64,000 bases of DNA from Escherichia phage vB_EcoM_G17: sequence record MK327931.1; one strand, 5' to 3'. The position numbers and the translations under genes are program-made. Position 1 is the stretch's first letter; the number at the start of each line of letters is the position of its first letter. The notes under the pieces are model-generated. The model was not told the DNA's origin, ran no database searches, and worked only from the letters and a program-made list of their open reading frames with translations. Shown piece by piece: positions 44,695 through 63,415 of the stretch.

Positions 44695-44702
44695 CCACCA
44701 GC
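44695..44702 (-). other. Chi octamer GCTGGTGG on minus strand (intergenic)
   Basis: plus strand reads CCACCAGC. Confidence 0.85.
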
Positions 44703-44737
44703 AGATAGTTACTCACCGTTATTAACTATATATTTTA

Positions 44738-44814
44738 GATACACTCCTGCACCCAGTGGGCTAGTTTTTGTCTATGCGTATATAATAGCAAAGGGACTGA
44801 CCGGAGTCAATCCC
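44738..44814 (-). repeat. terminator/promoter/box module, copy 1
   Basis: hairpin GGGACTGAC..GTCAATCCC 44793-814 carrying -35 TTGACT 44805-10; 17-nt spacer; -10 TATTAT 44782-87; box AGCCCACTGGGTGCAGGAGTGTATC 44738-62. Confidence 0.65.
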
Positions 44815-44832
44815 TTTTTTTATTCTTTTTTG

Positions 44833-45033
44833 TTAGATGATTCTCCAATCTTCTACGATCATGGTAAGATAACGGACCATCGATTCAAGTGATTCGAATT
44901 CCCGATAGTCTGCCGCTCCACCAGCGGTACAAGTACAGCCGATTAAACCATTTTGTAATTCCTTAATCTGTACATCGATAAGGTTGGCTTTAGCTTCTTT
45001 CAGTACTTCAACCAGGGCGATAGCGATAGACAT
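44833..45033 (-). CDS. hypothetical small protein
   Basis: 66-aa ORF; contains a coding Chi at 44918-25. Confidence 0.7.
   Translation of the reverse strand: MSIAIALVEVLKEAKANLIDVQIKELQNGLIGCTCTAGGAADYREFESLESMVRYLTMIVEDWRII
44918..44925 (-). other. Chi octamer on minus strand (coding, A-G-G codons)
   Basis: plus strand reads CCACCAGC. Confidence 0.85.
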
Positions 45034-45056
45034 AATGTTTTACTCCAAACTATTGA

Positions 45057-45116
45057 CGGGAGAACTATTCCCCCGCTCTATGTAAAACATTATACATTAC
45101 TGGTTAGTACTGTCAA
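45057..45116 (-). promoter_or_regulatory. promoter + 5' leader hairpin cassette
   Basis: -35 TTGACA 45111-16, 16-nt spacer, -10 TATAAT 45089-94; hairpin CGGGAGAAC..TTCCCCCG 45057-75. Confidence 0.75.
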
Positions 45117-45122
45117 ATAGTT

Positions 45123-45380
45123 TTATGAAATATCTTCGATGTAGTCGGCCCATTTCATTTTTTCAGTACTGTCAATGGCTACCGGATTATTTGGATCAAA
45201 CCATTCACCATTCCCGCAATACATACCCACGGCAACGGTTTTATATCCATCCTGTGCAGTACTCCACGACATAGCACGATAGATATGGCCTTTAACTGGT
45301 TGCAATACTGGTAATGTTTTATGGTCTTCTACGTAGGCCATAGCTTGAGGATTTACCCGATATTGTGTGAACTGTTCCAT
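45123..45380 (-). CDS. hypothetical small protein
   Basis: 85-aa ORF. Confidence 0.7.
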   Translation of the reverse strand: MEQFTQYRVNPQAMAYVEDHKTLPVLQPVKGHIYRAMSWSTAQDGYKTVAVGMYCGNGEWFDPNNPVAIDSTEKMKWADYIEDIS

Positions 45381-45408
45381 TATGTTTCCCCTTGTAGTTA
45401 GTAAAGTT

Positions 45409-45437
45409 ATTACATCAGTACTATCAAGCTATGTCAA
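45409..45437 (-). promoter_or_regulatory. sigma70-like promoter
   Basis: -35 TTGACA 45432-37, 17-nt spacer, -10 TGTAAT 45409-14. Confidence 0.6.
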
Positions 45438-45456
45438 TAGTACTGAAATAAAACTT

Positions 45457-45681
45457 TTAGATTAGATTATTGATGCCGTTGATGGTAGACTCGCTTTCTT
45501 CTTTCTCCCATTGGCGGTAGTACTTCCATGCTTCATGATATGTGGCGATTAGTTCATCTTTTTGATCCTGAGTACATGCCAGTACTGAATCACGGTGAGC
45601 GGTTTTATAGATAGAATCGAATGATTTCTTCTCTTCTGCCAGGTTAGCTACTTCCCGCATCAGTTCATCAAAGTTAGCCAT
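45457..45681 (-). CDS. hypothetical small protein
   Basis: 74-aa ORF, AGGAG SD. Confidence 0.7.
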   Translation of the reverse strand: MANFDELMREVANLAEEKKSFDSIYKTAHRDSVLACTQDQKDELIATYHEAWKYYRQWEKEESESTINGINNLI

Positions 45682-45699
45682 TTTATTACTCCTTTTAGT

Positions 45700-45756
45700 G
45701 GGGGAGGATATCTCCCCCTATGCAAAACATTATACTTTGTTTTAGTTATTATGCAA
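45700..45756 (-). promoter_or_regulatory. promoter + 5' leader hairpin cassette
   Basis: -35 TTGCAT 45751-56, 16-nt spacer, -10 TATAAT 45729-34; hairpin GGGGGAG-gatat-CTCCCCC 45700-17. Confidence 0.75.
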
Positions 45757-46012
45757 GTACTTTTTTCATATAAAGATTATATTCTACACCGCCGTAACCT
45801 TCTACGATGATATGTTTTGCGTTATCACGTTTGCACATAGTGAAACCGTTGTTGATGTGTTCTGCATTTTCCAGGGCGACATCACCGATAGCGGCACATA
45901 CGGCACTAATAACAGTATTCCGCAAAGTACTGGTATCATTAGCGGTCATAGTAGTTTGCAGTACTACGTTGTCGTATACGTGTGCATTGATAGTGATTTC
46001 GATAGTGTTCAT
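45749..46012 (-). CDS. hypothetical small protein
   Basis: 87-aa ORF. Confidence 0.7.
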   Translation of the reverse strand: MNTIEITINAHVYDNVVLQTTMTANDTSTLRNTVISAVCAAIGDVALENAEHINNGFTMCKRDNAKHIIVEGYGGVEYNLYMKKVLA

Positions 46013-46030
46013 GGTGTATCTCCTGGACTG

Positions 46031-46091
46031 GCGGGAGAACTATTCCCCCGCTCTATGTAAAACATTATACGTTAATCTAACTACAATGCAA
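46031..46091 (-). promoter_or_regulatory. promoter + 5' leader hairpin cassette
   Basis: -35 TTGCAT 46086-91, 16-nt spacer, -10 TATAAT 46064-69; hairpin 46031-51. Confidence 0.75.
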
Positions 46092-46098
46092 GTACTTT

Positions 46099-46290
46099 TT
46101 AAATTTTATTTCCGATATAGTCCGGTCTATTCTTTTCGGTCATACGCTTTGCTAATGTTTGCATATGGCTTATTGCGTTTAATGTGTCTTCCTCCAGGGA
46201 TGAATCAACATAATCAGGATCATTCTTCACCTTGCAATGATTATGATAGCGTAGTACTGCCAGTACTTTTTTAACTTCTTCTACTGTCAT
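46099..46290 (-). CDS. hypothetical small protein
   Basis: 63-aa ORF, ATGA-coupled to 46287..46559. Confidence 0.65.
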   Translation of the reverse strand: MTVEEVKKVLAVLRYHNHCKVKNDPDYVDSSLEEDTLNAISHMQTLAKRMTEKNRPDYIGNKI

Positions 46291-46559
46291 AATAAGTACC
46301 CCACTTCGTTAGCTTTCAGGTTAGTATCAATCATCAGTGGATTTTTGTAGTTCACAAAACGATTAGTTTTCTCGATAGCGAATCCCATATAATCCAGCTT
46401 ACTAACAGTACATTCATTCTTAAAAACTTCTTTCGCTGCATCGATGGCTGATTGCATGGATAACCGACCATCTAAATTAATGTTTCCAAATGATCCACCA
46501 GCAGAAGTAGGATTACCGTTCATATCTTTAATGATCATAGTAGCGGAGTAGCTGGACAT
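46287..46559 (-). CDS. hypothetical small protein
   Basis: 90-aa ORF; contains a coding Chi at 46495-502. Confidence 0.7.
   Translation of the reverse strand: MSSYSATMIIKDMNGNPTSAGGSFGNINLDGRLSMQSAIDAAKEVFKNECTVSKLDYMGFAIEKTNRFVNYKNPLMIDTNLKANEVGYLL
46495..46502 (-). other. Chi octamer on minus strand (coding, A-G-G codons)
   Basis: plus strand reads CCACCAGC. Confidence 0.85.
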
Positions 46560-46581
46560 AATTTTGTTTCCTTTTAGTATC

Positions 46582-46640
46582 GGGGAGAACTATTCTCCCC
46601 TTGATGTAAACTATTATACAGTACTGATATACTTTGTCAA
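46582..46640 (-). promoter_or_regulatory. promoter + 5' leader hairpin cassette
   Basis: -35 TTGACA 46635-40, 16-nt spacer, TGnTATAAT -10 at 46613-18; perfect hairpin GGGGAGAA-cta-TTCTCCCC 46582-600. Confidence 0.8.
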
Positions 46641-46646
46641 ATACTT

Positions 46647-47054
46647 TTATTCGCCCATATAGATTAAGTTATCATCGCCTACATAGGGATCGCAAACGTT
46701 GATTTCTTCGCAGTACTTCGTGAATACATCGCCATAGTGACCTAAACCACGATCCCAAAAACCAGTTCCGTGACCTTCGCGGGTAAGGAACAGATCATGA
46801 CCAGCTTGCTCATAACCGTAATCAATAAACATACCGCGAACTACTTCCAGATCATTACCGTGTTTCTCAATGAAGCGAGAACATGCAATCACCGCCGCTT
46901 GACGTGCTTCATCAGATAACTCATAATCTTCCAGGTAATCGCCGTTATCATTATGTACAGTACTGAATTGCATAGCTTCAATGTAAGCTACAACCATTGC
47001 AGCATGATTTTTATCGTTAGTGATGTTCCGAGCGAGATTAGTAGTAGTAGACAT
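46647..47054 (-). CDS. hypothetical protein
   Basis: 135-aa ORF; motif AGHDLFLTREGHGTGFWDRG, family not identified. Confidence 0.75.
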   Translation of the reverse strand: MSTTTNLARNITNDKNHAAMVVAYIEAMQFSTVHNDNGDYLEDYELSDEARQAAVIACSRFIEKHGNDLEVVRGMFIDYGYEQAGHDLFLTREGHGTGFWDRGLGHYGDVFTKYCEEINVCDPYVGDDNLIYMGE

Positions 47055-47075
47055 GATTTTATTCCTTATTGTATT

Positions 47076-47134
47076 GGGGAGAACTATTCTCCCCTTGATG
47101 TAAACTATTATACAGTACTGATATACTTTGTCAA
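47076..47134 (-). promoter_or_regulatory. promoter + 5' leader hairpin cassette
   Basis: near-identical copy of 46582-46640: -35 TTGACA 47129-34, -10 TATAAT 47107-12, hairpin 47076-94. Confidence 0.8.
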
Positions 47135-47137
47135 TAC

Positions 47138-47359
47138 TTAATTACGTTTAAAATGATATGTGCCTTTATCATCCTGTACGCCCCACACTGATTTACCATC
47201 AACACCAGTGAAACCGGATTGTAATTCAATATGGAAACCATTATTATCAACTACAAAAACTTTTTTATTTTCATCCCGATAACATTGATATTCTGAATCA
47301 ACATTAAAGGCCGCATCATTCAGAAGATTGGAAGCGTAAATGCAAGTCATTGTAGTCAT
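47138..47359 (-). CDS. hypothetical small protein
   Basis: trimmed to MTTMTCIY (the track N-term crosses hairpin and promoter). Confidence 0.7.
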   Translation of the reverse strand: MTTMTCIYASNLLNDAAFNVDSEYQCYRDENKKVFVVDNNGFHIELQSGFTGVDGKSVWGVQDDKGTYHFKRN

Positions 47360-47379
47360 GATTTTATTCCTTATTACCA

Positions 47380-47439
47380 GGGAGAACCATTTCCCCCTCT
47401 CTATGTAAAACATTATACTTGATTCTAAGTACAATGCAA
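47380..47439 (-). promoter_or_regulatory. promoter + 5' leader hairpin cassette
   Basis: -35 TTGCAT 47434-39, 16-nt spacer, -10 TATAAT 47412-17; hairpin 47380-97; near-identical to 44185-44246. Confidence 0.75.
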
Positions 47440-47484
47440 GTACTTTTTATCAAATAGTTTTCAGTACTGAATACTTATATAATA

Positions 47485-47566
47485 GATACACTTCCGCACC
47501 CTATGGGTCAGTGAGTTATCTCTCAATGAATATATAATAGCAAAGGGACTGACCGGAGTCAATCCC
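47485..47566 (-). repeat. terminator/promoter/box module, copy 2
   Basis: hairpin 47545-66 with -35 TTGACT 47557-62; 17-nt spacer; -10 TATTAT 47534-39; box GACCCATAGGGTGCGGAAGTGTATC 47485-509. Confidence 0.65.
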
Positions 47567-47580
47567 TTTTTTAATCTTTT

Positions 47581-48165
47581 TTATCGTGTTACCTTACTTG
47601 CTTCTACATCACGCTTTTTATAGTACTGATTCCAGATATTGCGGGTTAAACCGTAATCAAGTACTTTAATAAGGCCATTACGATCCTGGCCGATATTCTG
47701 TTTTCTGATATCTCTTATCGTTAGTGTTGATAATGTATCATCAACGTGTTGTAGTGCATCAGCAAAGCGGTGCTGGCGTTCAATGGCATTACGTTTAATA
47801 TTGTACTTTAATTCATTGCACGCGTTTACGTGCTTTACACTGCCTTTACTTGCAGTACTCAACCGATCCATAACGATAAACATATTATCAGGATCGCATA
47901 AATGCATATGCACCTTTGCAAAGTACTGTTTCAATTGAGGGCGGTCATAATCTAAAAAATTCCATACCTTACATTCAGTTTCATTTTGTTCTACACCCGC
48001 ATCACAATTCGCGACCTTGATCACTAACCGATCATTTAAAGCGAATACAATACGGGAAGAACCCGCACCGATGATCTCCAGACCAGCTAACCGACAAGCT
48101 GAAAGGATCTCTTTGTTGGTTTCCATTTCTGACAGGGTACGGATGAATTTAGTATAATTACGCAT
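47581..48165 (-). CDS. protein kinase-like protein (eukaryotic-like kinase fold)
   Basis: trimmed to MRNYTKF after AAGGAGAA; GAGSSRIVF (Gly loop), VIKV (Lys), RDIRKQNIG (D-x4-N catalytic loop), LDYG (DFG-like). Confidence 0.6.
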   Translation of the reverse strand: MRNYTKFIRTLSEMETNKEILSACRLAGLEIIGAGSSRIVFALNDRLVIKVANCDAGVEQNETECKVWNFLDYDRPQLKQYFAKVHMHLCDPDNMFIVMDRLSTASKGSVKHVNACNELKYNIKRNAIERQHRFADALQHVDDTLSTLTIRDIRKQNIGQDRNGLIKVLDYGLTRNIWNQYYKKRDVEASKVTR

Positions 48166-48196
48166 TGCATGTTCTCCTTGAGTTAATGAAACTATC

Positions 48197-48439
48197 TTAC
48201 AGTACTTTACTATCAATGGCAACTACTTTTTTAACATTAACGGCGTGGATCACCTCCTTAGTGTTTTTAGTACTGAATACTTTCGCCGCCCCATTCACGA
48301 CCGTGATACGATAGCGACCATTAACATCAACCATATTAATAAAGTCCGGCGTGCTGAATGGTGTTGTTTTACATTTGAGTACTGTTAACAATTCCACCAG
48401 CGATGTAGTTTCTTTGATACGTTTTTCTAAAGTAATCAT
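48197..48439 (-). CDS. hypothetical small protein
   Basis: 80-aa ORF; contains a coding Chi at 48394-401. Confidence 0.7.
   Translation of the reverse strand: MITLEKRIKETTSLVELLTVLKCKTTPFSTPDFINMVDVNGRYRITVVNGAAKVFSTKNTKEVIHAVNVKKVVAIDSKVL
48394..48401 (-). other. Chi octamer on minus strand (coding)
   Basis: plus strand reads CCACCAGC. Confidence 0.85.
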
Positions 48440-48468
48440 TTTGTTTTTCCCCGTGTTGGTATGTACAT

Positions 48469-48497
48469 ATAGTACTAAAACATTTGAGTACTGTCAA
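48469..48497 (-). promoter_or_regulatory. sigma70-like promoter
   Basis: -35 TTGACA 48492-97, 17-nt spacer, -10 TACTAT 48469-74. Confidence 0.65.
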
Positions 48498-48716
48498 TTA
48501 GATAATATTATATTTCTTAAAATAAAATGCGTCCTGTGTTGGTTGATACTCAATGCCATTGCCGTTATTGACTTCAACTAATAAACCTTTGTCAATAAGT
48601 TTTTTAATAGTACGATACCCTTGTTGAAAATTGGTAAAATGTGAATCATTACGAAAGGTATAACCGTGCTTAACTGCTTCATCAATAGTTTTCTTTTCGA
48701 TTTTAGATAATTTCAT
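48498..48716 (-). CDS. hypothetical small protein (possible winged-helix-like)
   Basis: trimmed to MKLSKIEKK; YRTIKKLIDKGLLVEV helix-like segment, weak. Confidence 0.65.
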   Translation of the reverse strand: MKLSKIEKKTIDEAVKHGYTFRNDSHFTNFQQGYRTIKKLIDKGLLVEVNNGNGIEYQPTQDAFYFKKYNII

Positions 48717-48744
48717 TTTGTTTCTCCCGTGTTGGTATATGTAC

Positions 48745-48773
48745 ATAGTACTAAAACATTTGAGTACTGTCAA
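48745..48773 (-). promoter_or_regulatory. sigma70-like promoter (paralog of 48469-48497)
   Basis: -35 TTGACA 48768-73, 17-nt spacer, -10 TACTAT 48745-50. Confidence 0.65.
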
Positions 48774-49024
48774 CGTGATATTAGTTTTATTTTCTTATTA
48801 TATTGTTGGTGTTCATATAGGTTTATCTTTCCTGTGTTCTCAATTACTATTCTGTTGTTAGTGTCCACATCGATTACACGCAGTTTCCCGTTGCTTAACT
48901 TCCTTGGTAATAGGTTACCATTAATAAACTCATTAGCAAGCTGTACGGCCTTTGTGATGATTCTCTTCGGTGCTTTATAGTGTACCCGTAAGATGTTATC
49001 TTTATATAGTTGAACCTTAATCAT
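48770..49024 (-). CDS. hypothetical small protein
   Basis: 84-aa ORF. Confidence 0.65.
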   Translation of the reverse strand: MIKVQLYKDNILRVHYKAPKRIITKAVQLANEFINGNLLPRKLSNGKLRVIDVDTNNRIVIENTGKINLYEHQQYNKKIKLISR

Positions 49025-49038
49025 TTTGTTTGTCCTAT

Positions 49039-49063
49039 AAAAAAGGCGGGAACTGATCCCGCC
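49039..49063 (-). terminator. rho-independent terminator
   Basis: GGCGGGA-5nt-TCCCGCC followed by T6 on minus strand after 49086..49490. Confidence 0.8.
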
Positions 49064-49085
49064 GTGTTGTTAGTACTGCAAGTTA

Positions 49086-49490
49086 TTAGATAACCTGGCG
49101 GCGTTTACTGAATACTGTTACACGATTACCCTTACGGTCGTGTCGGATCTCTTTCTGGTTGCGAATCAGTTCACTTGGACGCTTAAGGTTTGCCAGGTGA
49201 TCCGCGTGAGTCCATGCGGTGTGGTTTACCTGTACTTTGATATCAGAATCAGCGATAAACTCATCTTGTGCGTCAAGTATTGCCGCCAGCATATCCGCTC
49301 GTTTTAGTTCTGCTGCTGTCAGTACTGGCTCAGGTGAATTCACAATATCAGAGATTTCTTTGAACTGTACGGCCCAGCGTTGACCTTTCGGTGCATCTTT
49401 GCCCATGTCTTTAAATGCTGCTCCTTCCTCGCGTGCAACAATACGGGCAGCTTCACGGGTAGCGTAGAATTTAGTAATCATGGTATACAT
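49086..49490 (-). CDS. hypothetical protein, paralog of 61268..61534
   Basis: shared FYATREAARI..GA.FKDMG..G.RWA and C-term DRKGNRVTV. Confidence 0.75.
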   Translation of the reverse strand: MYTMITKFYATREAARIVAREEGAAFKDMGKDAPKGQRWAVQFKEISDIVNSPEPVLTAAELKRADMLAAILDAQDEFIADSDIKVQVNHTAWTHADHLANLKRPSELIRNQKEIRHDRKGNRVTVFSKRRQVI

Positions 49491-49525
49491 CCTATTAGTT
49501 GAGATAGTACTACAAGTTAGAGTCT

Positions 49526-49554
49526 ATTATAAAGTACTATCTGGGCAATGTCAA
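49526..49554 (-). promoter_or_regulatory. sigma70 consensus promoter
   Basis: -35 TTGACA 49549-54, 17-nt spacer, -10 TATAAT 49526-31. Confidence 0.75.
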
Positions 49555-49576
49555 ATAGTACTTTAAATGGATTCTA

Positions 49577-49900
49577 TTACATGTCTTTCTTACGTTTTAC
49601 ATCGTAGTATCGAACTGTAATTTCTTTGTTGATCTCTTCCTCGATGCGGTGAATAACTTTTTCTTTCGGGTTGAAACCTATAACGGTTTCTTTAATGATC
49701 TCCAAGCCCGTGTATTCGCCTTGTGTACCGTAACCGTATGTAAAGGTTTCGTGTCCCAGGTCTTCCCAGCGGTCGCCAATTAACGCTGACACGTAGCAAG
49801 AGTGGTAAGTATTGCCGTTCCGATCAGTCCAGCGATTAACTTTAATGTCAAAGGAGGTTACAATTTTCAGTTCTACTTTCTGGGTAAGGATCATAGCCAT
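49577..49900 (-). CDS. hypothetical protein, paralog of 55695..56018
   Basis: shared RWTD..GNTYHSC.VS...FTYGY...VKRKKD. Confidence 0.75.
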   Translation of the reverse strand: MAMILTQKVELKIVTSFDIKVNRWTDRNGNTYHSCYVSALIGDRWEDLGHETFTYGYGTQGEYTGLEIIKETVIGFNPKEKVIHRIEEEINKEITVRYYDVKRKKDM

Positions 49901-49923
49901 TTTTATTTCTCTCTCTTTGTTAG

Positions 49924-49984
49924 GAGGGGAACCATTCCCCTCGCTTGATGTAAACTATTATACAGTACTAAGATACTTTGTCAA
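49924..49984 (-). promoter_or_regulatory. promoter + 5' leader hairpin cassette
   Basis: -35 TTGACA 49979-84, 16-nt spacer, -10 TATAAT 49957-62; hairpin GAGGGGAA..TTCCCCTC 49924-42. Confidence 0.8.
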
Positions 49985-49987
49985 TAC

Positions 49988-50170
49988 TTATTTTTTGGAA
50001 AGTTTACGCATTAATTCTACGCTTTCTTGTGAACGTTTTGCTACCTGGCAAGCTGTATGGGCAGTAAACATTTTTGTATAGTCTGACGCTTTGCCACCAA
50101 ACCGAGCGGCACGTTCACGGGCACTTGGAACTAATACTATTTCTTTCTTGCAGATAGTGCACTTAGCCAT
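49988..50170 (-). CDS. small Cys-containing protein (possible zinc ribbon)
   Basis: trimmed to MAKCTICKKE; C-x2-C ... H-x2-C. Confidence 0.65.
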   Translation of the reverse strand: MAKCTICKKEIVLVPSARERAARFGGKASDYTKMFTAHTACQVAKRSQESVELMRKLSKK

Positions 50171-50193
50171 TTTTATTTCTCTCTCTTTGTTAG

Positions 50194-50255
50194 GAGGGGA
50201 ACCGTTTCCCCTCACTTGATGTAAACTATTATACAGTACTAAGATACTTTATCAA
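50194..50255 (-). promoter_or_regulatory. promoter + 5' leader hairpin cassette (~85-bp duplicate of 49903-49985)
   Basis: -35 TTGATA 50250-55, 16-nt spacer, -10 TATAAT 50228-33; hairpin 50194-213. Confidence 0.75.
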
Positions 50256-50258
50256 TAC

Positions 50259-50534
50259 TTAAGTATTGTAAATGTCGTGAATAGTGATAAAGTTTTTACG
50301 ACCGTAAACCTGCAAATCAATATCAATGTAGTGCTTATCTAGTACATCCTCGACGCTTAACGCGGTGTCGTGGATATCTTCGTAGAATTGAGGATCTACA
50401 ATCTTGCTTAAGTCATCCGGCGTTAACTTATCGTTAAGCCATTGAACCGCCTGGATATCTGCTTCACGTTTCCAGTCTTCCAGGTTAGTAGTCAGTACTT
50501 GTTCGATTTCGTTAGCTGTCAGTAGAATCCGCAT
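50259..50534 (-). CDS. hypothetical small protein
   Basis: 91-aa ORF. Confidence 0.7.
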   Translation of the reverse strand: MRILLTANEIEQVLTTNLEDWKREADIQAVQWLNDKLTPDDLSKIVDPQFYEDIHDTALSVEDVLDKHYIDIDLQVYGRKNFITIHDIYNT

Positions 50535-50742: not shown

Positions 50743-50750
50743 CCACCAGC
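50743..50750 (-). other. Chi octamer on minus strand (intergenic)
   Basis: plus strand reads CCACCAGC. Confidence 0.85.
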
Positions 50751-51922: not shown

Positions 51923-52117
51923 TTACAGTTTATGAATCAATTCTTTATCTAAGCGATAGCGTACATTATTAATAGTAACGGCATTGTTTTTAATGCTACG
52001 CTGTACAGGTCCACCAGCAATAACAAATGTTGCTTTATTACCCCGAACAATGATAGCACTTCCAGGATTACCGAAATCATCTTGTACTAAAATACTTGAT
52101 AAGTTTTCCATTTTCAT
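51923..52117 (-). CDS. hypothetical small protein
   Basis: 64-aa ORF; contains a coding Chi at 52011-18. Confidence 0.7.
   Translation of the reverse strand: MKMENLSSILVQDDFGNPGSAIIVRGNKATFVIAGGPVQRSIKNNAVTINNVRYRLDKELIHKL
52011..52018 (-). other. Chi octamer on minus strand (coding, A-G-G codons)
   Basis: plus strand reads CCACCAGC. Confidence 0.85.
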
Positions 52118-52723: not shown

Positions 52724-52731
52724 CCACCAGC
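52724..52731 (-). other. Chi octamer on minus strand (intergenic, inside hairpin AGCCCAC..GTGGGCT)
   Basis: plus strand reads CCACCAGC. Confidence 0.85.
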
Positions 52732-54586: not shown

Positions 54587-54589
54587 GTA

Positions 54590-56925: not shown

Positions 56926-56933
56926 CCACCAGC
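56926..56933 (-). other. Chi octamer on minus strand (intergenic)
   Basis: plus strand reads CCACCAGC. Confidence 0.85.
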
Positions 56934-57002
56934 TAGGGCGATGTATCAGATAATCAGTTTAATGCGTTAGGCGGTGCTAGTGGACTGGAATACTATAGAC
57001 AC

Positions 57003-57684: not shown

Positions 57685-57738
57685 CTACTTTTTTAAAACT
57701 ATTTTTAAAGTATCTCAGTACTACGATACTACAAAAAC

Positions 57739-57765
57739 AAAAAAGCCCACTGTTTAAGGTGGGCT
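57739..57765 (-). terminator. rho-independent terminator (copy 2 of an identical repeat)
   Basis: same AGCCCAC..GTGGGCT stem followed by T6 after 57783..58082. Confidence 0.85.
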
Positions 57766-57782
57766 AGTGATTCAGTACTAGA

Positions 57783-58082
57783 TTATAAACAGTTAATTAC
57801 TCCGGTGTGCGTTACTTTCTCAGTATCCATAACCGTGACCGATCCACGCTTAGTACTGGCATCATAATAAATTGTGGTGCTACCGTTTTCGTCTTCTTCA
57901 TGGAACGGGCCGTTTTTAAATGCTTCCGGCTGGATCTCTAAATCCTTTAATACAATCTCGCCAGTTCTTTCATCGGTCATTGCAACAGTGCACTGAATGA
58001 ATTTTTCATTACTTACATCTAATGACGCATTAACAGCGAAAGAGGAAACAGATAAAGCCAGGGCGATGATTGCAATTTTCAT
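57783..58082 (-). CDS. secreted/periplasmic small protein
   Basis: N-term signal peptide MKIAIIALALSVSSFAVNA. Confidence 0.75.
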   Translation of the reverse strand: MKIAIIALALSVSSFAVNASLDVSNEKFIQCTVAMTDERTGEIVLKDLEIQPEAFKNGPFHEEDENGSTTIYYDASTKRGSVTVMDTEKVTHTGVINCL

Positions 58083-58102
58083 TTGATTATCCTTAGTTAC
58101 CA

Positions 58103-58161
58103 GGGGGAACCGCTCCCCCTTGCTATGTAAAATATTATACAGTACTAAAAACTAATTGCAA
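58103..58161 (-). promoter_or_regulatory. promoter + 5' leader hairpin cassette
   Basis: -35 TTGCAA 58156-61, 16-nt spacer, -10 TATAAT 58134-39; hairpin GGGGGAA-ccg-CTCCCCC 58103-19. Confidence 0.75.
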
Positions 58162-58166
58162 GTACT

Positions 58167-58403
58167 TTATGATTTTTTATAAAACATTTCGGCAGTGATA
58201 TTTTTACCCGTTGGCTGTACTTTATCCAGAATTTTTTGATGCCCTGGCCGTCCAAATGAATATGATCCGTAAACCGTAAACCAGTAGTTACCCTCAGTGT
58301 TTACATGTACAGCACAATAGGGAACGCCCCGCGATTCATCACTAGTAAAGTGTGCTACCGTTCCCGTTACATTCGAAGTCGTTGATTTGATTTGTTCAAG
58401 CAT
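58167..58403 (-). CDS. hypothetical small protein
   Basis: 78-aa ORF. Confidence 0.7.
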   Translation of the reverse strand: MLEQIKSTTSNVTGTVAHFTSDESRGVPYCAVHVNTEGNYWFTVYGSYSFGRPGHQKILDKVQPTGKNITAEMFYKKS

Positions 58404-58424
58404 TTTCTTATTCCTTAGTTACCA

Positions 58425-58477
58425 GGGGAACCGCTCCCCTATGCAAAACATTATACGCGTTTAAAAACTAATAGCAA
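58425..58477 (-). promoter_or_regulatory. promoter + 5' leader hairpin cassette
   Basis: -35 TTGCTA 58472-77, 16-nt spacer, -10 TATAAT 58450-55; hairpin 58425-39. Confidence 0.7.
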
Positions 58478-58510
58478 GTATTTTAATAAAAAGTATTTGG
58501 AAAATAATTG

Positions 58511-58539
58511 TTGACAAGTGCATCCAGTACTGGCATAAT
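58511..58539 (+). promoter_or_regulatory. plus-strand sigma70 promoter, divergent from 58450-58477
   Basis: -35 TTGACA 58511-16, 17-nt spacer, -10 CATAAT 58534-39. Confidence 0.65.
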
Positions 58540-58545
58540 TACTAC

Positions 58546-58654
58546 ATCAAGACGAAACAGTCACTAACCCACCGGGTGCATAGATCCGTCTATTAAATGA
58601 TTCAGTACTGAAAAAGTAACGGGGAGTTATTATCTCCCCGCGTTGTTATTTTGT
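58546..58654 (+). ncRNA. candidate ~110-nt plus-strand small RNA
   Basis: own promoter; hairpin GAC-gaaaca-GTC; box AACCCACCGGGTGCATAG 58566-83; ATAGA-tccg-TCTAT; terminal hairpin CGGGGAG-7nt-CTCCCCG 58620-40 followed by a U-rich tail; no ORF. Confidence 0.4.
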
Positions 58655-58867
58655 AAGGTATAAACAGAAGTCACCTTTATTTGCTACGCCGCCAGTGTAA
58701 CGCGATGAATAGTTAGAAATATCTTGTACTTCTGCTATTACCAGTGTATCATCATTCATTTCGTCGCAGAAGCAAACGGCTGGATCTTTTACGCCGATAT
58801 TGTCGGCATGTTCCCGCATAGATTTAACCAGTGCTTCCAGTTGAGAAAGAGTAGTGATATTAGCCAT
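58646..58867 (-). CDS. hypothetical small protein
   Basis: trimmed to MANITTLSQ. Confidence 0.7.
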   Translation of the reverse strand: MANITTLSQLEALVKSMREHADNIGVKDPAVCFCDEMNDDTLVIAEVQDISNYSSRYTGGVANKGDFCLYLTK

Positions 58868-58886
58868 TGTATTTTCCTCATTACCA

Positions 58887-58945
58887 GGGAGAACCATTTC
58901 TCCCCTCTATGTAAACTATTATACAGTACTGAAAACTAATTGCAA
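58887..58945 (-). promoter_or_regulatory. promoter + 5' leader hairpin cassette
   Basis: -35 TTGCAA 58940-45, 16-nt spacer, -10 TATAAT 58918-23; hairpin 58887-904. Confidence 0.75.
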
Positions 58946-58953
58946 GTACTTTT

Positions 58954-59157
58954 TTAATTTAATTGCTTTAAAACATACTCAAAGACACCACGCACATCAT
59001 TGATCATCGCCTGGCGGTTAGCAGGTAACGCATCAGGATCGCCACTATCCCAGGCATTGATAAAACTCCCCAAATCATGATAGATTTTATTCTGTAAGCC
59101 GATTAACTGTAATTCTTTTTCTTCAAGCTCTTTGATGCGGTCGATTAAATCACTCAT
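58954..59157 (-). CDS. hypothetical small protein
   Basis: trimmed to MSDLIDRIKE after GAGGA. Confidence 0.65.
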   Translation of the reverse strand: MSDLIDRIKELEEKELQLIGLQNKIYHDLGSFINAWDSGDPDALPANRQAMINDVRGVFEYVLKQLN

Positions 59158-59174
59158 TAGATAATCCTCAGTAC

Positions 59175-59459
59175 TTAACTGTAAGATCCGCAACGGTCGC
59201 AGTAGTGCCCGTCCTCGTCATCGTCAACGAATTGACCGACGAAATGATCTACTTTCGCTTTCAGGTTATTATAATCGTTTTCTACTTCATTTAAACGCTT
59301 CTGGTAGTATTCCAGTGCTTTAAGATATGCCGCATCAGCAGTTTTCTCCTGCATAGCTAAATTCATGCCACGCGTTTCATCGTACAGCCAAAAACCATCG
59401 GTGCACTGGCTAATAGATAATGACTTGCTTAGTACTGTATAGTTAATTACTTTACCCAT
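59175..59459 (-). CDS. hypothetical small protein
   Basis: 94-aa ORF; C-term HYCDRCGSYS. Confidence 0.7.
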   Translation of the reverse strand: MGKVINYTVLSKSLSISQCTDGFWLYDETRGMNLAMQEKTADAAYLKALEYYQKRLNEVENDYNNLKAKVDHFVGQFVDDDEDGHYCDRCGSYS

Positions 59460-59477
59460 TAGATAATCCTCAGTAAA

Positions 59478-59537
59478 GGCGGGAACTATTCCCCGCCTCG
59501 ATATAAAGTATTATACGTTAATCTAACTACAATGCAA
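59478..59537 (-). promoter_or_regulatory. promoter + 5' leader hairpin cassette
   Basis: -35 TTGCAT 59532-37, 16-nt spacer, -10 TATAAT 59510-15; hairpin GGCGGGAA-cta-TTCCCCGCC 59478-97. Confidence 0.75.
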
Positions 59538-59551
59538 GTACTTTTTAAATT

Positions 59552-59818
59552 TTATAATCCTTTTACTGCATCAGGTGCGACTACTCCATCAATGTATTGA
59601 ACATCGTTTTCAACTTCACGGGCGGCATCATTCAGCAGATCAAAATTAAATTCCATTTCTTCCAGATCATCGAAATCAGGCTCATAACCATTAATTGTTG
59701 AATAAGTCCAAGTACCTTTTTCATAAGTTACGACACTTACATCAGGGAAGAAATCTTGCACATGATCCATCGCATCCCGAACCAATTGATGTGCAGTTGT
59801 GATATTTAAAGTTTTCAT
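59552..59818 (-). CDS. hypothetical small protein
   Basis: 88-aa ORF. Confidence 0.7.
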   Translation of the reverse strand: MKTLNITTAHQLVRDAMDHVQDFFPDVSVVTYEKGTWTYSTINGYEPDFDDLEEMEFNFDLLNDAAREVENDVQYIDGVVAPDAVKGL

Positions 59819-59839
59819 TTTGTTGCCCTTTTAGTGTGA

Positions 59840-59899
59840 GCGGGGAACCACTCCCCGCCTCGATGTAAAGTATTATACGCTTTTAAACTTAGTTTGCAA
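59840..59899 (-). promoter_or_regulatory. promoter + 5' leader hairpin cassette
   Basis: -35 TTGCAA 59894-99, 16-nt spacer, -10 TATAAT 59872-77; hairpin GCGGGGAA-cca-CTCCCCGC 59840-58. Confidence 0.75.
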
Positions 59900-59911
59900 G
59901 TACTTTTTAAA

Positions 59912-60523
59912 TTAATATGCGATTGATTCTACTACGTCATCAATAACATTGAATTGATATTCGTTACCCTCAATCAGTGCCGTAATGTTTTCAGTAGTGA
60001 ATTGATCCTCATATGCATTCTCTAAATCACGGTACAACTTGCGGGATAATTCACGAATAGTTTCAGTGAGTAGTTCCTCAAGCTCATTAACTAACGTTTC
60101 TTGTTTTGCGGTTAAATCAGTGTAAGCCGATTCAATGTACCCGCTTACAGTATTCTCATGCGAGTAGTGGGAGTGAGAACGCTTTACACTCATCGCCAAA
60201 TCATCTTCATTCAGCAGGTGACGGATTGAGCGATACTTAGTTAATGCTCTTACCTTGCGTAAAAACTTCACTGCGTCAACGTGGTCAGTACTGATTGATG
60301 CACCGTCACCCTGGGACCAAAAACCACTGAATTGTATTTCAGCTTCATTAATGCCATATTCCGGTAGTACTGTTTCTTTATAGTATTCAATTTCACTTTC
60401 AGAAAAATAATTGTCGTTTGAGTTTTTTTCACGTTCCCGAACCAGTTCGATAGCTGACGTTTTTTGTTCTGCGTTCAATTCAGAAAAATCCATAACGAAA
60501 GTAGTAGTAGTGATAGTTTTCAT
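59912..60523 (-). CDS. hypothetical protein
   Basis: 203-aa ORF; motif FSGFWSQGDGASIS, family not identified. Confidence 0.75.
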   Translation of the reverse strand: MKTITTTTFVMDFSELNAEQKTSAIELVREREKNSNDNYFSESEIEYYKETVLPEYGINEAEIQFSGFWSQGDGASISTDHVDAVKFLRKVRALTKYRSIRHLLNEDDLAMSVKRSHSHYSHENTVSGYIESAYTDLTAKQETLVNELEELLTETIRELSRKLYRDLENAYEDQFTTENITALIEGNEYQFNVIDDVVESIAY

Positions 60524-60555
60524 TTTGTAACCCTCATTCAGTAGTTGATGTAAGT

Positions 60556-60583
60556 ATTATACGCTTTTAAAAACATTTGTCAA
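60556..60583 (-). promoter_or_regulatory. sigma70-like promoter (proximal of a tandem pair)
   Basis: -35 TTGACA 60578-83, 16-nt spacer, -10 TATAAT 60556-61. Confidence 0.7.
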
Positions 60584-60593
60584 ACTATTTTAT

Positions 60594-60664
60594 CAGGGGA
60601 GTTTTTCGTGTGCCTTACTCCTGGGCTACTTAACGGGAAGTTACTTATTTCGTTCCCCGTCCTG
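60594..60664 (-). promoter_or_regulatory. conserved ~70-nt leader element, copy 2
   Basis: near-copy of 50606-50674. Confidence 0.45.
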
Positions 60665-60673
60665 ATGTAAAAC

Positions 60674-60701
60674 ATTATACGCCTTTAAACATAGTTTGCA
60701 A
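60674..60701 (-). promoter_or_regulatory. sigma70-like promoter (distal of a tandem pair)
   Basis: -35 TTGCAA 60696-701, 16-nt spacer, -10 TATAAT 60674-79. Confidence 0.7.
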
Positions 60702-60746
60702 GTACTTTTTAAAAATAGTTTTCAGTACTGAATATTTAAAAAAGTA

Positions 60747-60810
60747 TTGACAGCATTATCAAGTACTGGCATAATATACCCCATGACAACAGCTAACCCA
60801 CCGGGTGCAC
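60747..60810 (+). promoter_or_regulatory. plus-strand promoter followed by a box (plus sense)
   Basis: -35 TTGACA 60747-52, 17-nt spacer, -10 CATAAT 60770-75; box AACCCACCGGGTGCAC 60795-810. Confidence 0.6.
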
Positions 60811-60842
60811 AATTGTAACTATACTAAACTACTTTTTCTATA

Positions 60843-60919
60843 GATACACTCCCGCACCCTATGGGCTACGGCTTATCTGCCAATGAATACATTATGCCAG
60901 TACTGACAAAATAAGTCAA
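60843..60919 (-). promoter_or_regulatory. minus-strand promoter followed by a box, convergent with 60747-60810
   Basis: -35 TTGACT 60914-19, 17-nt spacer, -10 CATAAT 60891-96; box AGCCCATAGGGTGCGGGAGTGTATC 60843-67. Confidence 0.6.
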
Positions 60920-60949
60920 TACCGGCAATTGTAAAGATTTGTAAACTGC

Positions 60950-61180
60950 TTATACTGCAATCGCGTCCAGGCTATAATAATAATAAGTGCCGTATTGGTG
61001 TACTTTATTACCTTTTATTTCAGTACTGAATGAATCCGAACGGTTTGCATATGATGTTAATTTAAAGTACTTTGATTTGCTGATACGTTGCCATACACCG
61101 CAGATCCGCTGTAAGTAAGTAGTTTTATTCGTGGTAGTATCTTTTACAGTTTTAACTTCAGTCATATACATATTAGTCAT
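60950..61180 (-). CDS. hypothetical small protein
   Basis: 76-aa ORF. Confidence 0.7.
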   Translation of the reverse strand: MTNMYMTEVKTVKDTTTNKTTYLQRICGVWQRISKSKYFKLTSYANRSDSFSTEIKGNKVHQYGTYYYYSLDAIAV

Positions 61181-61201
61181 TTTTATTACTCCAGGTTATA
61201 G

Positions 61202-61260
61202 GCGGGAAGAGTTCCCGCTCTCGATGTAAAACATTATACGCCATTAAACATAGTTTGCAA
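61202..61260 (-). promoter_or_regulatory. promoter + 5' leader hairpin cassette
   Basis: -35 TTGCAA 61255-60, 16-nt spacer, -10 TATAAT 61233-38; hairpin GCGGGAA-gag-TTCCCGC 61202-18. Confidence 0.75.
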
Positions 61261-61267
61261 GTACTTT

Positions 61268-61534
61268 TTATTCAAGTACTGCAATCTTTTTAGTACGGTA
61301 CACGGTCACGCGGTTGCCCTTTCGGTCGAGCTTTATTTCTACCACTCGACGCGATACACTATCAGGACTTTTCAACGCCGCTAACCAGTACTGTAATGAT
61401 CTGGCGGTACTACGCTTTATAATGGCCCAACGTTTACCACGTTCCGATTGTACGCCCATATCTTTAAACGTTGCCCCGTCCTGGCGTGCGGCGATCCGAG
61501 CTTGTTCACGCGTCGCAAAATACTTAATATTCAT
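61268..61534 (-). CDS. hypothetical protein, paralog of 49086..49490
   Basis: trimmed to MNIKYFATREQARIAARQDGATFKDMG; C-term DRKGNRVTVYRTKK. Confidence 0.75.
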   Translation of the reverse strand: MNIKYFATREQARIAARQDGATFKDMGVQSERGKRWAIIKRSTARSLQYWLAALKSPDSVSRRVVEIKLDRKGNRVTVYRTKKIAVLE

Positions 61535-61619
61535 GCTGTTGCCCTTATCGTTGGTGTATGAATAAAACACTATTATAAAGTACTATCGCAAAAAATGATA
61601 GTACTTTAAATAAATTCTA

Positions 61620-61859
61620 TTACATTCCAACCATTGCAGCACGGATCGCAGTAGTGCTATATTTGAATCCGTCCGGCGTTTTATCTTGTCCAGTCTGTTC
61701 TAAAAATAACATCATATGACGGGCCGCATCATTACGATTAGTATTGGCGGCAATAAAGTCCTGGGCCAACCGGTATAATGATTCATCGTTATTAATCCAA
61801 AGGCTTACATTCCAATGAGTTTTGTTTTTGTGACCTAAGAACATTTTTGATTTAGCCAT
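61620..61859 (-). CDS. hypothetical small protein
   Basis: trimmed to MAKSKMFLGHK. Confidence 0.7.
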   Translation of the reverse strand: MAKSKMFLGHKNKTHWNVSLWINNDESLYRLAQDFIAANTNRNDAARHMMLFLEQTGQDKTPDGFKYSTTAIRAAMVGM

Positions 61860-61879
61860 TTTTTTAATCCTCTTATATA

Positions 61880-61938
61880 GTGGGGAACTATTCCCCACCT
61901 GATGTAAAACATTATACGCTTTTAAACATAGTTTGCAA
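61880..61938 (-). promoter_or_regulatory. promoter + 5' leader hairpin cassette
   Basis: -35 TTGCAA 61933-38, 16-nt spacer, -10 TATAAT 61911-16; hairpin GTGGGGAA-cta-TTCCCCAC 61880-97. Confidence 0.75.
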
Positions 61939-61952
61939 GTACTTTATTAAAC

Positions 61953-62315
61953 TTATTCGTAAATTTTGCCACTGTCAGCCCATACCAGGAAACGAGGCAT
62001 ATTATCCCATGCATCTTGTTTTAAATTTAAACCGTGTAATACTTCTGTACTTTCCATTCCTGGTACTGGTTTACTATACACCGCGAAATTTTCGCCCATA
62101 TACTGATAAACCATCGTCAAATCACTGGCGATCATCTTATGGATCATCGCATCAAGCATCACGGTAGCGGCGTATTGTTCACGCTTAAGCGGCAACATTG
62201 TAATAAGTTCCCGATAAGCTGAAATGTGAATTTTTACCGTTTCAGCCGGAAGACCTTTCATCTCTTCACGGAAGTTGACCAGGTTAGAAATAATTTTATT
62301 GATTTGGGTCGCCAT
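61953..62315 (-). CDS. hypothetical protein
   Basis: trimmed to MATQINKII. Confidence 0.7.
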   Translation of the reverse strand: MATQINKIISNLVNFREEMKGLPAETVKIHISAYRELITMLPLKREQYAATVMLDAMIHKMIASDLTMVYQYMGENFAVYSKPVPGMESTEVLHGLNLKQDAWDNMPRFLVWADSGKIYE

Positions 62316-62339
62316 CGTATTAATCTCTTTTAAAGTGTA

Positions 62340-62398
62340 GCGGGAAGTGTTCCCGCTCTCGATGTAAAACATTATACGCCTTTAAACATAGTTTGCAA
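62340..62398 (-). promoter_or_regulatory. promoter + 5' leader hairpin cassette (rightmost protein-coding unit)
   Basis: -35 TTGCAA 62393-98, 16-nt spacer, -10 TATAAT 62371-76; hairpin GCGGGAA-gtg-TTCCCGC 62340-56. Confidence 0.75.
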
Positions 62399-62634
62399 GT
62401 ACTTTCTACATGTACTTTTAAAATAGTTTTCTTTCTATATAGGGGAACTATCATTCAGTACTATTATTCAGTACTGAATCAACCAAATCACTACTACACC
62501 CCATAAAACGGCCTCAGACGCATTCTAACGCATTAATACACCTAAGCTATACATTTGCACCATTCCAATCATTCCAGGGCTTTACGGGCCGTTTAAACGC
62601 GTTAAATTATTTTCAATTATTTTGTTTTTAGCTA

Positions 62635-62720
62635 TTGACTCAGTACAGAAAAAGCGTATAATTACTACATAGACGCGAGAAAGCGGAAACCCCAGAGGGT
62701 GCGGAATTACGCCCAAAATT
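62635..62720 (+). promoter_or_regulatory. plus-strand promoter followed by a box
   Basis: -35 TTGACT 62635-40, 16-nt spacer, -10 TATAAT 62657-62; hairpin CGC-gagaaa-GCG; box ACCCCAGAGGGTGCGGAATTACGCCCAAAATTC. Confidence 0.55.
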
Positions 62721-62736
62721 CAAGATATAAAAAAAG

Positions 62737-62816
62737 GATACACTCCCGCACCCTAGCAGGTAAACGCACTTTCTCAGTACTGAAATATAGTACCATAGTC
62801 CGGCCCAGGATAGCAA
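62737..62816 (-). promoter_or_regulatory. minus-strand promoter followed by a box, convergent with 62635-62720
   Basis: -35 TTGCTA 62811-16, 18-nt spacer, -10 TACTAT 62787-92; box CCTGCTAGGGTGCGGGAGTGTATCC 62737-60. Confidence 0.5.
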
Positions 62817-62850
62817 GCAAATTAATTAAAACTTTTTTGCTTCCAGGGTA

Positions 62851-62936
62851 TTGCTTTATTTTTTCAGTACTGTATAATAGTTCCATCAAGTCGAGAAAGA
62901 CTCAAGCCCACCGGGTGCATAGTTACGCCCAAAATT
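62851..62936 (+). promoter_or_regulatory. plus-strand promoter followed by a box
   Basis: -35 TTGCTT 62851-56, 16-nt spacer, TGnTATAAT 62873-78; hairpin GTC-gagaaa-GAC; box AGCCCACCGGGTGCATAGTTACGCCCAAAATTC 62905-36. Confidence 0.55.
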
Positions 62937-62974
62937 CAGTACTGAAAAAATTTTTAAAAATATCCGTCCAGGCC

Positions 62975-63003
62975 GTTGACATTGCCCCCAGTTTATAAGA
63001 TAA
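62975..63003 (+). promoter_or_regulatory. plus-strand sigma70-like promoter
   Basis: -35 TTGACA, 17-nt spacer, -10 GATAAT; followed by GGGGAAACTATCCCC hairpin near 63041-55. Confidence 0.45.
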
Positions 63004-63101
63004 TGATTCCAGATTCAGAAAAATCTAACTCCAGATACTGCGGGGAAACTATCCCCACGCGGTAGGGGAACTATTGGAAAAAACAAAATAAAATTTTGAT
63101 T

Positions 63102-63215
63102 TAGCCGTCTATACTTCCAGACGTGTAACCATCTAGCCGTTTAGCCGTCCAAACGTCTAGCCATCCAGAAATCTAGCCGTCTAGATGGATAGCCATCTTT
63201 ACTTCCAGACTTCTG
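63102..63215. repeat. iteron-like short direct repeats plus small palindromes
   Basis: (C)TAGCC(G/A)T(C/T) at ~63102, 63133, 63142, 63157, 63173, 63190; ACTTCCAGAC twice; palindromes AGATGG-atag-CCATCT and CCAGA-ct-TCTGG. Confidence 0.6.
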
Positions 63216-63395
63216 GAGGGCTAGACATATCTACGCCCAAAATCCATCCAGGGTAACTACACCCAAAATCCGTCAGTACTATACCATAGATCTATCTTTT
63301 GAAAGGGAGTATTCAGTACTGCCATCATAGCCCTCACTATGTTACCCTAGGAGGATGAAGACCATCATGTAGTACTGAATACTGTTAGAGGGAAT

Positions 63396-63415
63396 CCACC
63401 AGCACAAGCTGGTGG
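63396..63415. other. palindromic Chi pair (one Chi on each strand)
   Basis: CCACCAGC-acaa-GCTGGTGG, exact. Confidence 0.85.

Follow-up and report, generated by a model that had tools for sequence, protein, structure and literature searches.

Why does the DNA of a jumbo coliphage carry a cluster of nine co-oriented Chi sites, copies of the octamer GCTGGTGG that is recognised by the RecBCD enzyme of E. coli K-12? The cluster occupies positions 44695-63415 of a 64,000-nt stretch of Escherichia phage vB_EcoM_G17 (MK327931.1), which we call the window and to which all coordinates refer unless another record is named. We found that the cluster lies wholly inside the direct terminal repeat (DTR) of the phage genome and covers most of its length, and we consider it likely that it is a host Chi array kept by selection in the 20.7-kb DTR of a RaK2-like jumbo coliphage. 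A preliminary description of this DNA had proposed a Chi-based strategy for evading RecBCD or for stimulating recombination, and on our comparisons this is still the best-supported reading, with an enrichment that is real and specific to the exact octamer. The description was right only in part, as it had missed both the coincidence of the cluster with the DTR and the physical terminus at which the window ends.

Chi sites and the direct terminal repeat

The window is 100% identical to Escherichia phage Sharanji (OR545507.1), an Asteriusvirus with a genome of 350,079 bp whose host is E. coli K-12 MG1655; the enterobacterial host that had been deduced from the presence of Chi is thus the correct one. 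The deposited Sharanji record is a circularly collapsed assembly with an arbitrary start and a single collapsed copy of the DTR, and its two ends share an identical overlap of 77 bp (positions 27556-27632), which is an assembler artefact. The window runs over this end junction and stops at the true terminus.

The length of the Sharanji DTR was determined as 20,668 bp by PhageTerm, in a report that does not mention Chi (PMC11895373). In the related phage vB_Ec-M-J, whose DTR is annotated with 21,525 bp, the inner boundary aligns to position 43334 and the outer physical end to position 64000, and the records of CRJP21 and E9.1 begin at the equivalent of position 64000. Because the PhageTerm length agrees with the boundaries and record starts of the relatives, the DTR of Sharanji can be placed exactly at positions 43333-64000, with position 43333 as the left and position 64000 as the right physical end of the virion DNA. 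The termini are experimentally supported, by PhageTerm for Sharanji and by restriction digestion for fEgEco12, which has a DTR of about 21 kb (PMC13070987).

The DTR stands apart from the rest of the window in several respects. With 38.4% G+C it is the richest part of the window, compared to 30-35% in the neighbouring paralog arrays and 33.8% in the remaining genome, and the earlier characterisation of the locus as an AT-rich early region is therefore incorrect. It is 65% coding and contains about 50 small genes, all on the minus strand and each with its own promoter, and its sense strand is G-rich. Among relatives the DTR is mosaic (31-78% coverage), while the remaining window is 96-99% identical. 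Almost none of its gene products can be assigned a function: in scans of 49 DTR proteins against Pfam and PHROGs, with the top families listed for the latter, the recognisable matches were a DksA/TraR zinc finger and a ParE-like toxin domain, besides a weak kinase-like match and a few domains of unknown function. Positions 1-43332 consist of long arrays of tightly packed, overlapping small paralogous open reading frames (ORFs) with 30-35% G+C, which stop abruptly at the DTR boundary; gene spacing, G+C content and promoter usage all shift there.

An exact scan of the window for GCTGGTGG returned eleven sites, nine on the minus and two on the plus strand, each at the position and on the strand that had been read by eye. 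The sites, the repeat that contains ten of them and a decayed copy are as follows:

4128-4135, plus strand: isolated Chi, intergenic, between record genes gp543 and gp544
43333-64000, no strand: DTR of Sharanji, 20,668 bp, placed by PhageTerm length, vB_Ec-M-J boundary alignment and the record starts of relatives
44695-44702, minus strand: Chi 1, intergenic, 1,362 bp from the left physical end and about 30 bp upstream of a TTGACA promoter; flanking module in common with Chi 5; intact in 5 of 5 relatives
44918-44925, minus strand: Chi 2, coding, read as GCT-GGT-GG (Ala-Gly-Gly) in an ORF of 66 amino acids; intact in 4 of 4 aligned relatives
46495-46502, minus strand: Chi 3, coding, GCT-GGT-GG, in an ORF of 90 amino acids; intact in 5 of 5
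48394-48401, minus strand: Chi 4, coding, G-CTG-GTG-G (Leu-Val), in an ORF of 80 amino acids; intact in phage A4 despite a flank identity of 77%
50743-50750, minus strand: Chi 5, intergenic, flanked by a terminator-like hairpin upstream and a promoter downstream; intact in 5 of 5
52011-52018, minus strand: Chi 6, coding, GCT-GGT-GG, in an ORF of 64 amino acids; intact in 5 of 5
52724-52731, minus strand: Chi 7, intergenic, overlapping the 3' arm of the hairpin AGCCCAC-n12-GTGGGCT; intact in 5 of 5
56926-56933, minus strand: Chi 8, intergenic; intact in 5 of 5, with flanks 88-94% identical
56976-56983, plus strand: decayed antisense Chi, GCTAGTGG; an exact plus-strand Chi stands at the homologous position in vB_Ec-M-J, CRJP21, BF17 and SD-1_S14, about 7 kb from the right end
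63396-63403, minus strand: Chi 9, left arm of a palindromic pair in the non-coding terminal region; intact in 4 of 5, lost in A4
63408-63415, plus strand: antisense Chi that forms the right arm of the palindrome and lies 586-593 bp from the right physical end

Positions 1-43332 contain no Chi besides the one at 4128, so that the impression of Chi-free paralog arrays, which had come from an incomplete visual scan, is borne out. The five intergenic minus-strand copies that had been counted are confirmed; together with the plus-strand partner at 63408, six of the ten DTR sites are intergenic, which corresponds to 0.83 sites per kb in non-coding and 0.30 per kb in coding DNA. Three of the four coding sites are read in the GCT-GGT-GG frame and one in the CTG-GTG frame. 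Because the density in non-coding DNA exceeds that in coding DNA, and because only one of the four coding sites falls in the CTG-GTG frame, the array is not driven by codon usage.

The suggestion that several sites are built into repeated regulatory modules did not hold. Only the sites at 44695 and 50743 share a repeated module, and the flanks of all others are unrelated, which rejects the descent of the array from a single regulatory module that happens to carry Chi. The palindromic pair at 63396-63415 (CCACCAGC-acaa-GCTGGTGG) does form the perfect hairpin that had been described, an 8-bp inverted repeat with a 4-nt loop (-10 kcal/mol, z = -3.4). It is not an intrinsic terminator, because there is no T-run on either strand, and a terminator scan made no call.

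Specificity of the enrichment and recurrence among relatives

In 100 dinucleotide-preserving shuffles of the window Chi occurred 0.41 +/- 0.60 times, with a maximum of 3, compared to the 11 copies observed. Across the whole 350-kb genome we counted 29 Chi, 10 on the plus and 19 on the minus strand. The DTR makes up 5.9% of the genome and holds 10 of the 29 sites, nine on the sense and one on the antisense strand (p = 3.6e-6); on the minus strand alone, 9 of 19 genomic sites lie within it (binomial p = 4.7e-7). The second-best 20.7-kb window of the genome has 4 Chi, and the remaining 329 kb together have 19. On the sense strand of the DTR, nine Chi are found where Markov models of orders 0-4 expect 0.11-0.33, an excess of about 27-80-fold.

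The excess is a property of the exact word. When all 168 permutations of the same composition were counted in the DTR, Chi ranked first with 9 copies, the other 167 reaching a maximum of 2 and a mean of 0.28. The 24 one-mismatch neighbours of Chi have 3 copies in total in the DTR, and all nine GCTGGTG and all nine CTGGTGG heptamers of the DTR fall inside Chi. The shuffles, the Markov models, the permutations and the neighbours all reject chance or composition as an explanation.

Could the array nevertheless be a by-product of composition or history, either of a GC-rich, mosaic and sense-G-rich DTR or of horizontally acquired, Chi-rich DNA? The elevated G+C content, the G-rich sense strand and the mosaicism of the DTR are what such an origin would leave behind, and Chi is indeed mildly enriched outside the DTR as well (record 36446-350002 and 1-15777), with 9 plus-strand and 10 minus-strand sites compared to 0.7-5 expected per strand and a rank of 1-3 among the 168 permutations. 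Composition, however, predicts a density ratio of about 1.7 between the DTR and the rest of the genome, and the observed ratio is about 14. The scarcity of permuted and one-mismatch words is likewise difficult to reconcile with a by-product, as are the conservation above the flank rate and the independent occurrence in three genera described below. A host origin of the DNA is rejected, since a megablast search of 5,426 complete E. coli genomes gave no match to the DTR; furthermore, its Chi density of one per 2.1 kb is above that of E. coli (one per 4.6 kb), though its G+C content is 12 points lower. We regard a by-product as the least probable of the explanations considered here, to be entertained only at very long odds. 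The Chi outside the DTR include two small groups, one at record positions 49764, 50022 and 52297 in RCC1-like paralogs and one at record positions 233506 and 233527 in gp387.

Five other Asteriusvirus genomes, one of which was isolated on Salmonella, carry 8-9 co-oriented Chi each, at homologous positions and all within the DTR. No Chi was found in 12-20 kb of their flanking paralog arrays, nor in 13 kb past the right end. In 47 of the 49 site-genome pairs that could be aligned with these five relatives the octamer is unchanged, compared to 77.5% of pairs for random DTR octamers. Four of these relatives have the palindromic pair at a distance of 585-607 bp from the end, and they carry a further antisense Chi some 7 kb inward from that end; in phage A4, antisense Chi are absent.

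Arrays of the same kind are also found in two further genera. Klebsiella phage RaK2 (Alcyoneusvirus), of which 100 kb were scanned, has 8 sense and 1 antisense Chi in a syntenic, GC-elevated and loosely packed block at about 224.7-245.1 kb, and none in the 20 kb that follow. Phage XbC2 (Mimasvirus, OP292654.1, positions 1-17500) carries 7 Chi on the sense and 2 on the antisense strand; one of these lies 216 bp from a record start that is colinear with the terminal region of Sharanji, and 5 Chi were found in the other 77 kb sampled. None of the sites in RaK2 and XbC2 is positionally homologous to those of Sharanji or to each other. The Chi array arose independently in the three genera. That the trait is retained although its sites change from genus to genus is the strongest argument that selection acts on Chi itself.

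XbC2 had been chosen as a negative control on account of its non-enteric host label, Xanthomonas vesicatoria. It failed as such, because the array is present, and it became the third positive case. Its capsid protein is 89% identical to that of Sharanji. The host label is in doubt, and either it or the Chi specificity of that host deserves a check.

DNA ends, RecBCD and competing explanations

For Chi to be recognised, RecBCD must arrive at the 3' side of GCTGGTGG, and the minus-strand sites would thus act on enzyme moving to higher coordinates, as had been argued correctly before. Because the cluster coincides with the DTR and the window ends at a terminus, these orientations gain a meaning. 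A RecBCD molecule that enters at the left end and moves rightward would meet nine correctly oriented Chi, at 1.36, 1.59, 3.16, 5.06, 7.41, 8.68, 9.39, 13.6 and 20.1 kb, seven of which lie within 9.4 kb of the end. From the right end there is one correctly oriented Chi at 0.59 kb (two in most relatives). This site at 63408 is the only exact Chi of the DTR that is active on enzyme entering there, and the next one on the leftward path is the isolated site at 4128, about 39 kb past the inner edge of the DTR. If 30-40% recognition per encounter is assumed, the calculated fraction of RecBCD that escapes is about 1-4% past nine Chi and 60-70% past one. In each of the three genera the same end has its first co-oriented Chi at 1.1-1.5 kb, and the array as a whole is skewed to that end (pooled mean fractional position 0.368, p = 0.012).

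How would such an arrangement serve the phage? The virion DNA would arrive in the cell as a linear duplex whose two ends are free; RecBCD would load at these and would unwind and degrade the DNA inward from them. At a correctly oriented Chi, the enzyme would halt degradation of the 3' strand and load RecA there. Since the sites lie within the DTR, every RecA filament formed in this way would consist of DTR sequence, for which a homologous partner is available in the DTR at the opposite end or in that of a sister genome. The incoming genome would be expected to survive and, at the same time, to undergo DTR-by-DTR recombination, which could lead to circularisation, concatemers or recombination-primed replication before any phage recombination proteins exist. 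We infer that RecBCD acts on these ends in vivo and recognises Chi there, and that the selected benefit is protection or recombination. In sum, the array probably lets incoming DNA survive and join its ends, by a mechanism that would follow known RecBCD biology and the precedents of phages P1 and LLS. The authors of the fEgEco12 study suggested circularisation via the DTR as a speculation, and mention neither Chi nor RecBCD (PMC13070987).

Like Sharanji, phage T5 has a long exact DTR (10.2 kb in T5) with pre-early host-takeover genes, and its leading-end genes are transcribed toward that end, a likeness that supports the Sharanji DTR as the first DNA exposed in the cell. A bolder version of the proposal, which we put forward only tentatively and hold to be less probable than its opposite, is that the one-sided array acts as a polarity device. 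The DTR end with nine Chi would lead injection, and the host RecBCD-Chi-RecA pathway would be recruited to invade the other DTR copy, which would start the first round of recombination-dependent replication, or circularisation, at a time when phage proteins have yet to be made. If this were true, the phage would depend on the host Chi system for its very first step although it is virulent and has recombination machinery of its own, and the Chi sequence of the host would be a host-range determinant for the whole RaK2-like group.

Other phages meet the same problem of RecBCD attacking a linear genome with proteins, such as the end protector gp2 of T4 or Gam-type inhibitors of the lambda kind, whereas the solution proposed for Sharanji is written into the sequence. 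A T4 gp2-type end protector was not found with phmmer and tblastn, a weak negative in a search whose positive control, gp4, was detected. No Gam-type RecBCD inhibitor was recognised among the 49 DTR proteins in Pfam or among the top PHROGs families listed for them, a list that a rare match could escape. Both negatives are consistent with the proposed mechanism.

The same encounter of RecBCD with Chi could bring a different benefit. RecBCD degradation products from a free end feed spacer capture by Cas1-Cas2 in the adaptation stage of clustered regularly interspaced short palindromic repeats (CRISPR) immunity, and Chi bounds the capture zone; Chi reportedly limits RecBCD-dependent spacer acquisition. 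The array may therefore serve to confine spacer capture to the first 1-1.5 kb of the genome, and the position of the first Chi in the three genera fits this idea equally well. One or two Chi would suffice for the purpose, however, and nine over 20 kb, confined to a repeat, are better suited to homology-directed exchange. CRISPR adaptation is, moreover, silent in many E. coli strains. We consider this explanation unlikely, albeit the most credible of the rivals.

Alternatively, the octamer could be a site for a factor unrelated to RecBCD, such as a transcription or packaging signal, and its identity with Chi a coincidence. The DTR is full of repeated regulatory words, among them promoter and terminator modules, iterons and the palindrome CAGTACTG with 33 copies; five of the Chi lie between a terminator and a promoter, one sits in a hairpin arm and two form the palindrome. 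Against a site of this kind, four Chi are inside unrelated ORFs, the flanks are unrelated and there is no fixed spacing to promoters or start codons, while the palindrome lacks the T-run of an intrinsic terminator. In addition, the word is the exact 8-bp Chi of the host, with one-off variants nearly absent, and it is found again, at non-homologous positions, in two other genera whose regulatory sequences have diverged. Taken together, these points make an unrelated factor very improbable.

Several observations weigh against a Chi array maintained for use by RecBCD. The right end has a single exact Chi and in A4 it has none, and protection of both ends is therefore not universal. The phage itself encodes a recombinase A (gp334), an SbcD-like exonuclease (gp367) and a RecD-like helicase (gp297), and an ExoX is annotated as well. 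Because the DTR is rich in other over-represented octamers, from promoter, terminator and operator-like modules, over-representation of Chi is not diagnostic on its own. The conservation test is weakened by the fact that lineages within the genus are not independent, which makes it supportive and short of decisive, and the extent of the DTR in RaK2 and XbC2 was deduced from synteny, G+C content and gene spacing.

The strand bias is a further point of this kind. The DTR does show the 9:1 asymmetry from which co-orientation had been read, and outside the DTR there is no bias by coordinate strand (9 plus, 10 minus). Coding Chi elsewhere, however, favour the sense over the antisense strand by 12:5, and against this baseline the bias in the DTR is not significant (p = 0.16; 0.054 when pooled over three genera). 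Because coding Chi elsewhere favour the sense strand and all DTR genes are on the minus strand, the 9:1 ratio is not independent evidence; it may simply follow gene orientation. Finally, T5 (NC_005859.1, positions 1-50000) has two Chi, at 8127 and 8689 on the plus strand of the terminal repeat, and none in the next 40 kb. Both face the right end and not the left end that is injected first, and they do not form an array, for which reason T5 was rejected as a parallel case; this phage depends on means other than Chi.

The surroundings of the Chi palindrome contain further repeated words:

62373-64000, no strand: non-coding terminal 1.6 kb with the Chi pair, TAGCC(A/G)TC iterons, CAGTACTG palindromes and promoter-like sites; partly colinear with the XbC2 record start

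The 33 copies of CAGTACTG in the 20.7-kb DTR compare to 30 in the other 43 kb of the window. They are often paired and intergenic (for example at 62457, 62471, 63314, 63437 and 63463), and AGTACT is also enriched in the DTR-like block of RaK2. The palindrome could be the operator through which a regulator encoded by phage or host acts on the early genes. TAGCC(A/G)TC is present in five spaced copies, 16-40 bp apart, at 63102-63197, and ACGCCCAAAAT in three copies within the terminal region (62709, 62925 and 63233). The iteron stretch is partly conserved at positions 648-819 of XbC2, and both repeats, which lie close to the physical end, are candidate iterons of an origin or of a terminase (pac) site. 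A perfect match to the sigma-70 consensus promoter (TTGACA-16-TATAAT) occupies 63635-63608 on the minus strand, and about 140 nt further downstream two CAGTACTG arms form a terminator-like hairpin (63470-63437). This unit at 63635-63437 lies beside the Chi palindrome, has no ORF and may represent a small RNA.

Comparison with P1, LLS and the jumbo phages

In P1, and also in P7 and D6, Chi is concentrated in the zone in which the terminal redundancy has to recombine. Circularisation of the injected DNA depends on RecBCD and RecA, and P1 carries about 50 Chi over wide end zones in nearly random orientation (bioRxiv 10.1101/2021.07.08.451572; PMC12315714). In both P1 and Sharanji, Chi is far above expectation in terminally redundant DNA, has an equal or higher density in non-coding DNA and lies mostly outside the CTG-GTG frame, and the proposed role is RecBCD-Chi-RecA recombination between the terminal repeats of an injected linear genome. 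The intergenic and frame pattern of Sharanji thus matches the criteria that were argued for direct selection of Chi in P1. On the other hand, P1 is temperate, packages by the headful mechanism, has variable ends and possesses Cre-lox, while Sharanji is virulent, has a genome of 350 kb and has fixed ends. The Sharanji array is confined to the exact DTR and oriented 9:1. RecBCD dependence has been demonstrated for P1 and is predicted for Sharanji.

The lambdoid phage LLS, a 43-kb cos phage without its own recombinase or RecBCD inhibitor, is the second precedent, and enhancement of its growth by RecBCD was measured (PMC12315714). As in Sharanji, its Chi cluster terminally and share a strong orientation bias, with 20 of 23 in LLS facing the end that RecBCD enters, which was read as selection for the use of host RecBCD. 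The enrichment is local to the DTR in Sharanji, in contrast to the genome-wide enrichment of LLS. By the features that mark Chi use, Sharanji has the exact octamer, a K-12 host and sites that face the available ends, as the placement of the cluster relative to the genome termini confirms: nine sites face the left end and the one at 63408 faces the right. It also shares with P1 and LLS a density above that of expectation and of related words, a position close to an end and an array that coding does not explain. What it does not share is the lack of a recombination module of its own, which belongs to the lambdoid pattern. A rule of "no Rec module, high Chi" is stated for lambdoid phages in PMC12315714, where Bobay et al. 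2013 is cited for it, and Sharanji breaks this rule because RecA-like, SbcD-like and RecD-like genes are present.

Full-text literature searches returned no report of Chi in RaK2-like jumbo phages, and the papers on Sharanji (PMC11895373) and fEgEco12 (PMC13070987) are silent on the subject. Selection of Chi at genome ends is known from P1, LLS and lambdoid phages; new here are virulent jumbo phages with fixed 20-kb DTRs and recombination genes of their own, and an enrichment confined to the DTR. The array thereby extends the idea derived from P1 and LLS to virulent jumbo phages with their own recombinases and refines the rule that couples high Chi to the absence of a Rec module. For practical purposes, a Chi array may serve as a marker for the location and polarity of the DTR in collapsed assemblies, and the type of Chi may flag the true host group of a phage, as the example of XbC2 illustrates. 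For the biology of these viruses, the array offers a concrete sequence-level hypothesis for how giant phages that do not form a nucleus may pass RecBCD and make use of their 20-kb DTRs, a hypothesis that is directly testable with rec mutants because Sharanji plates on K-12.

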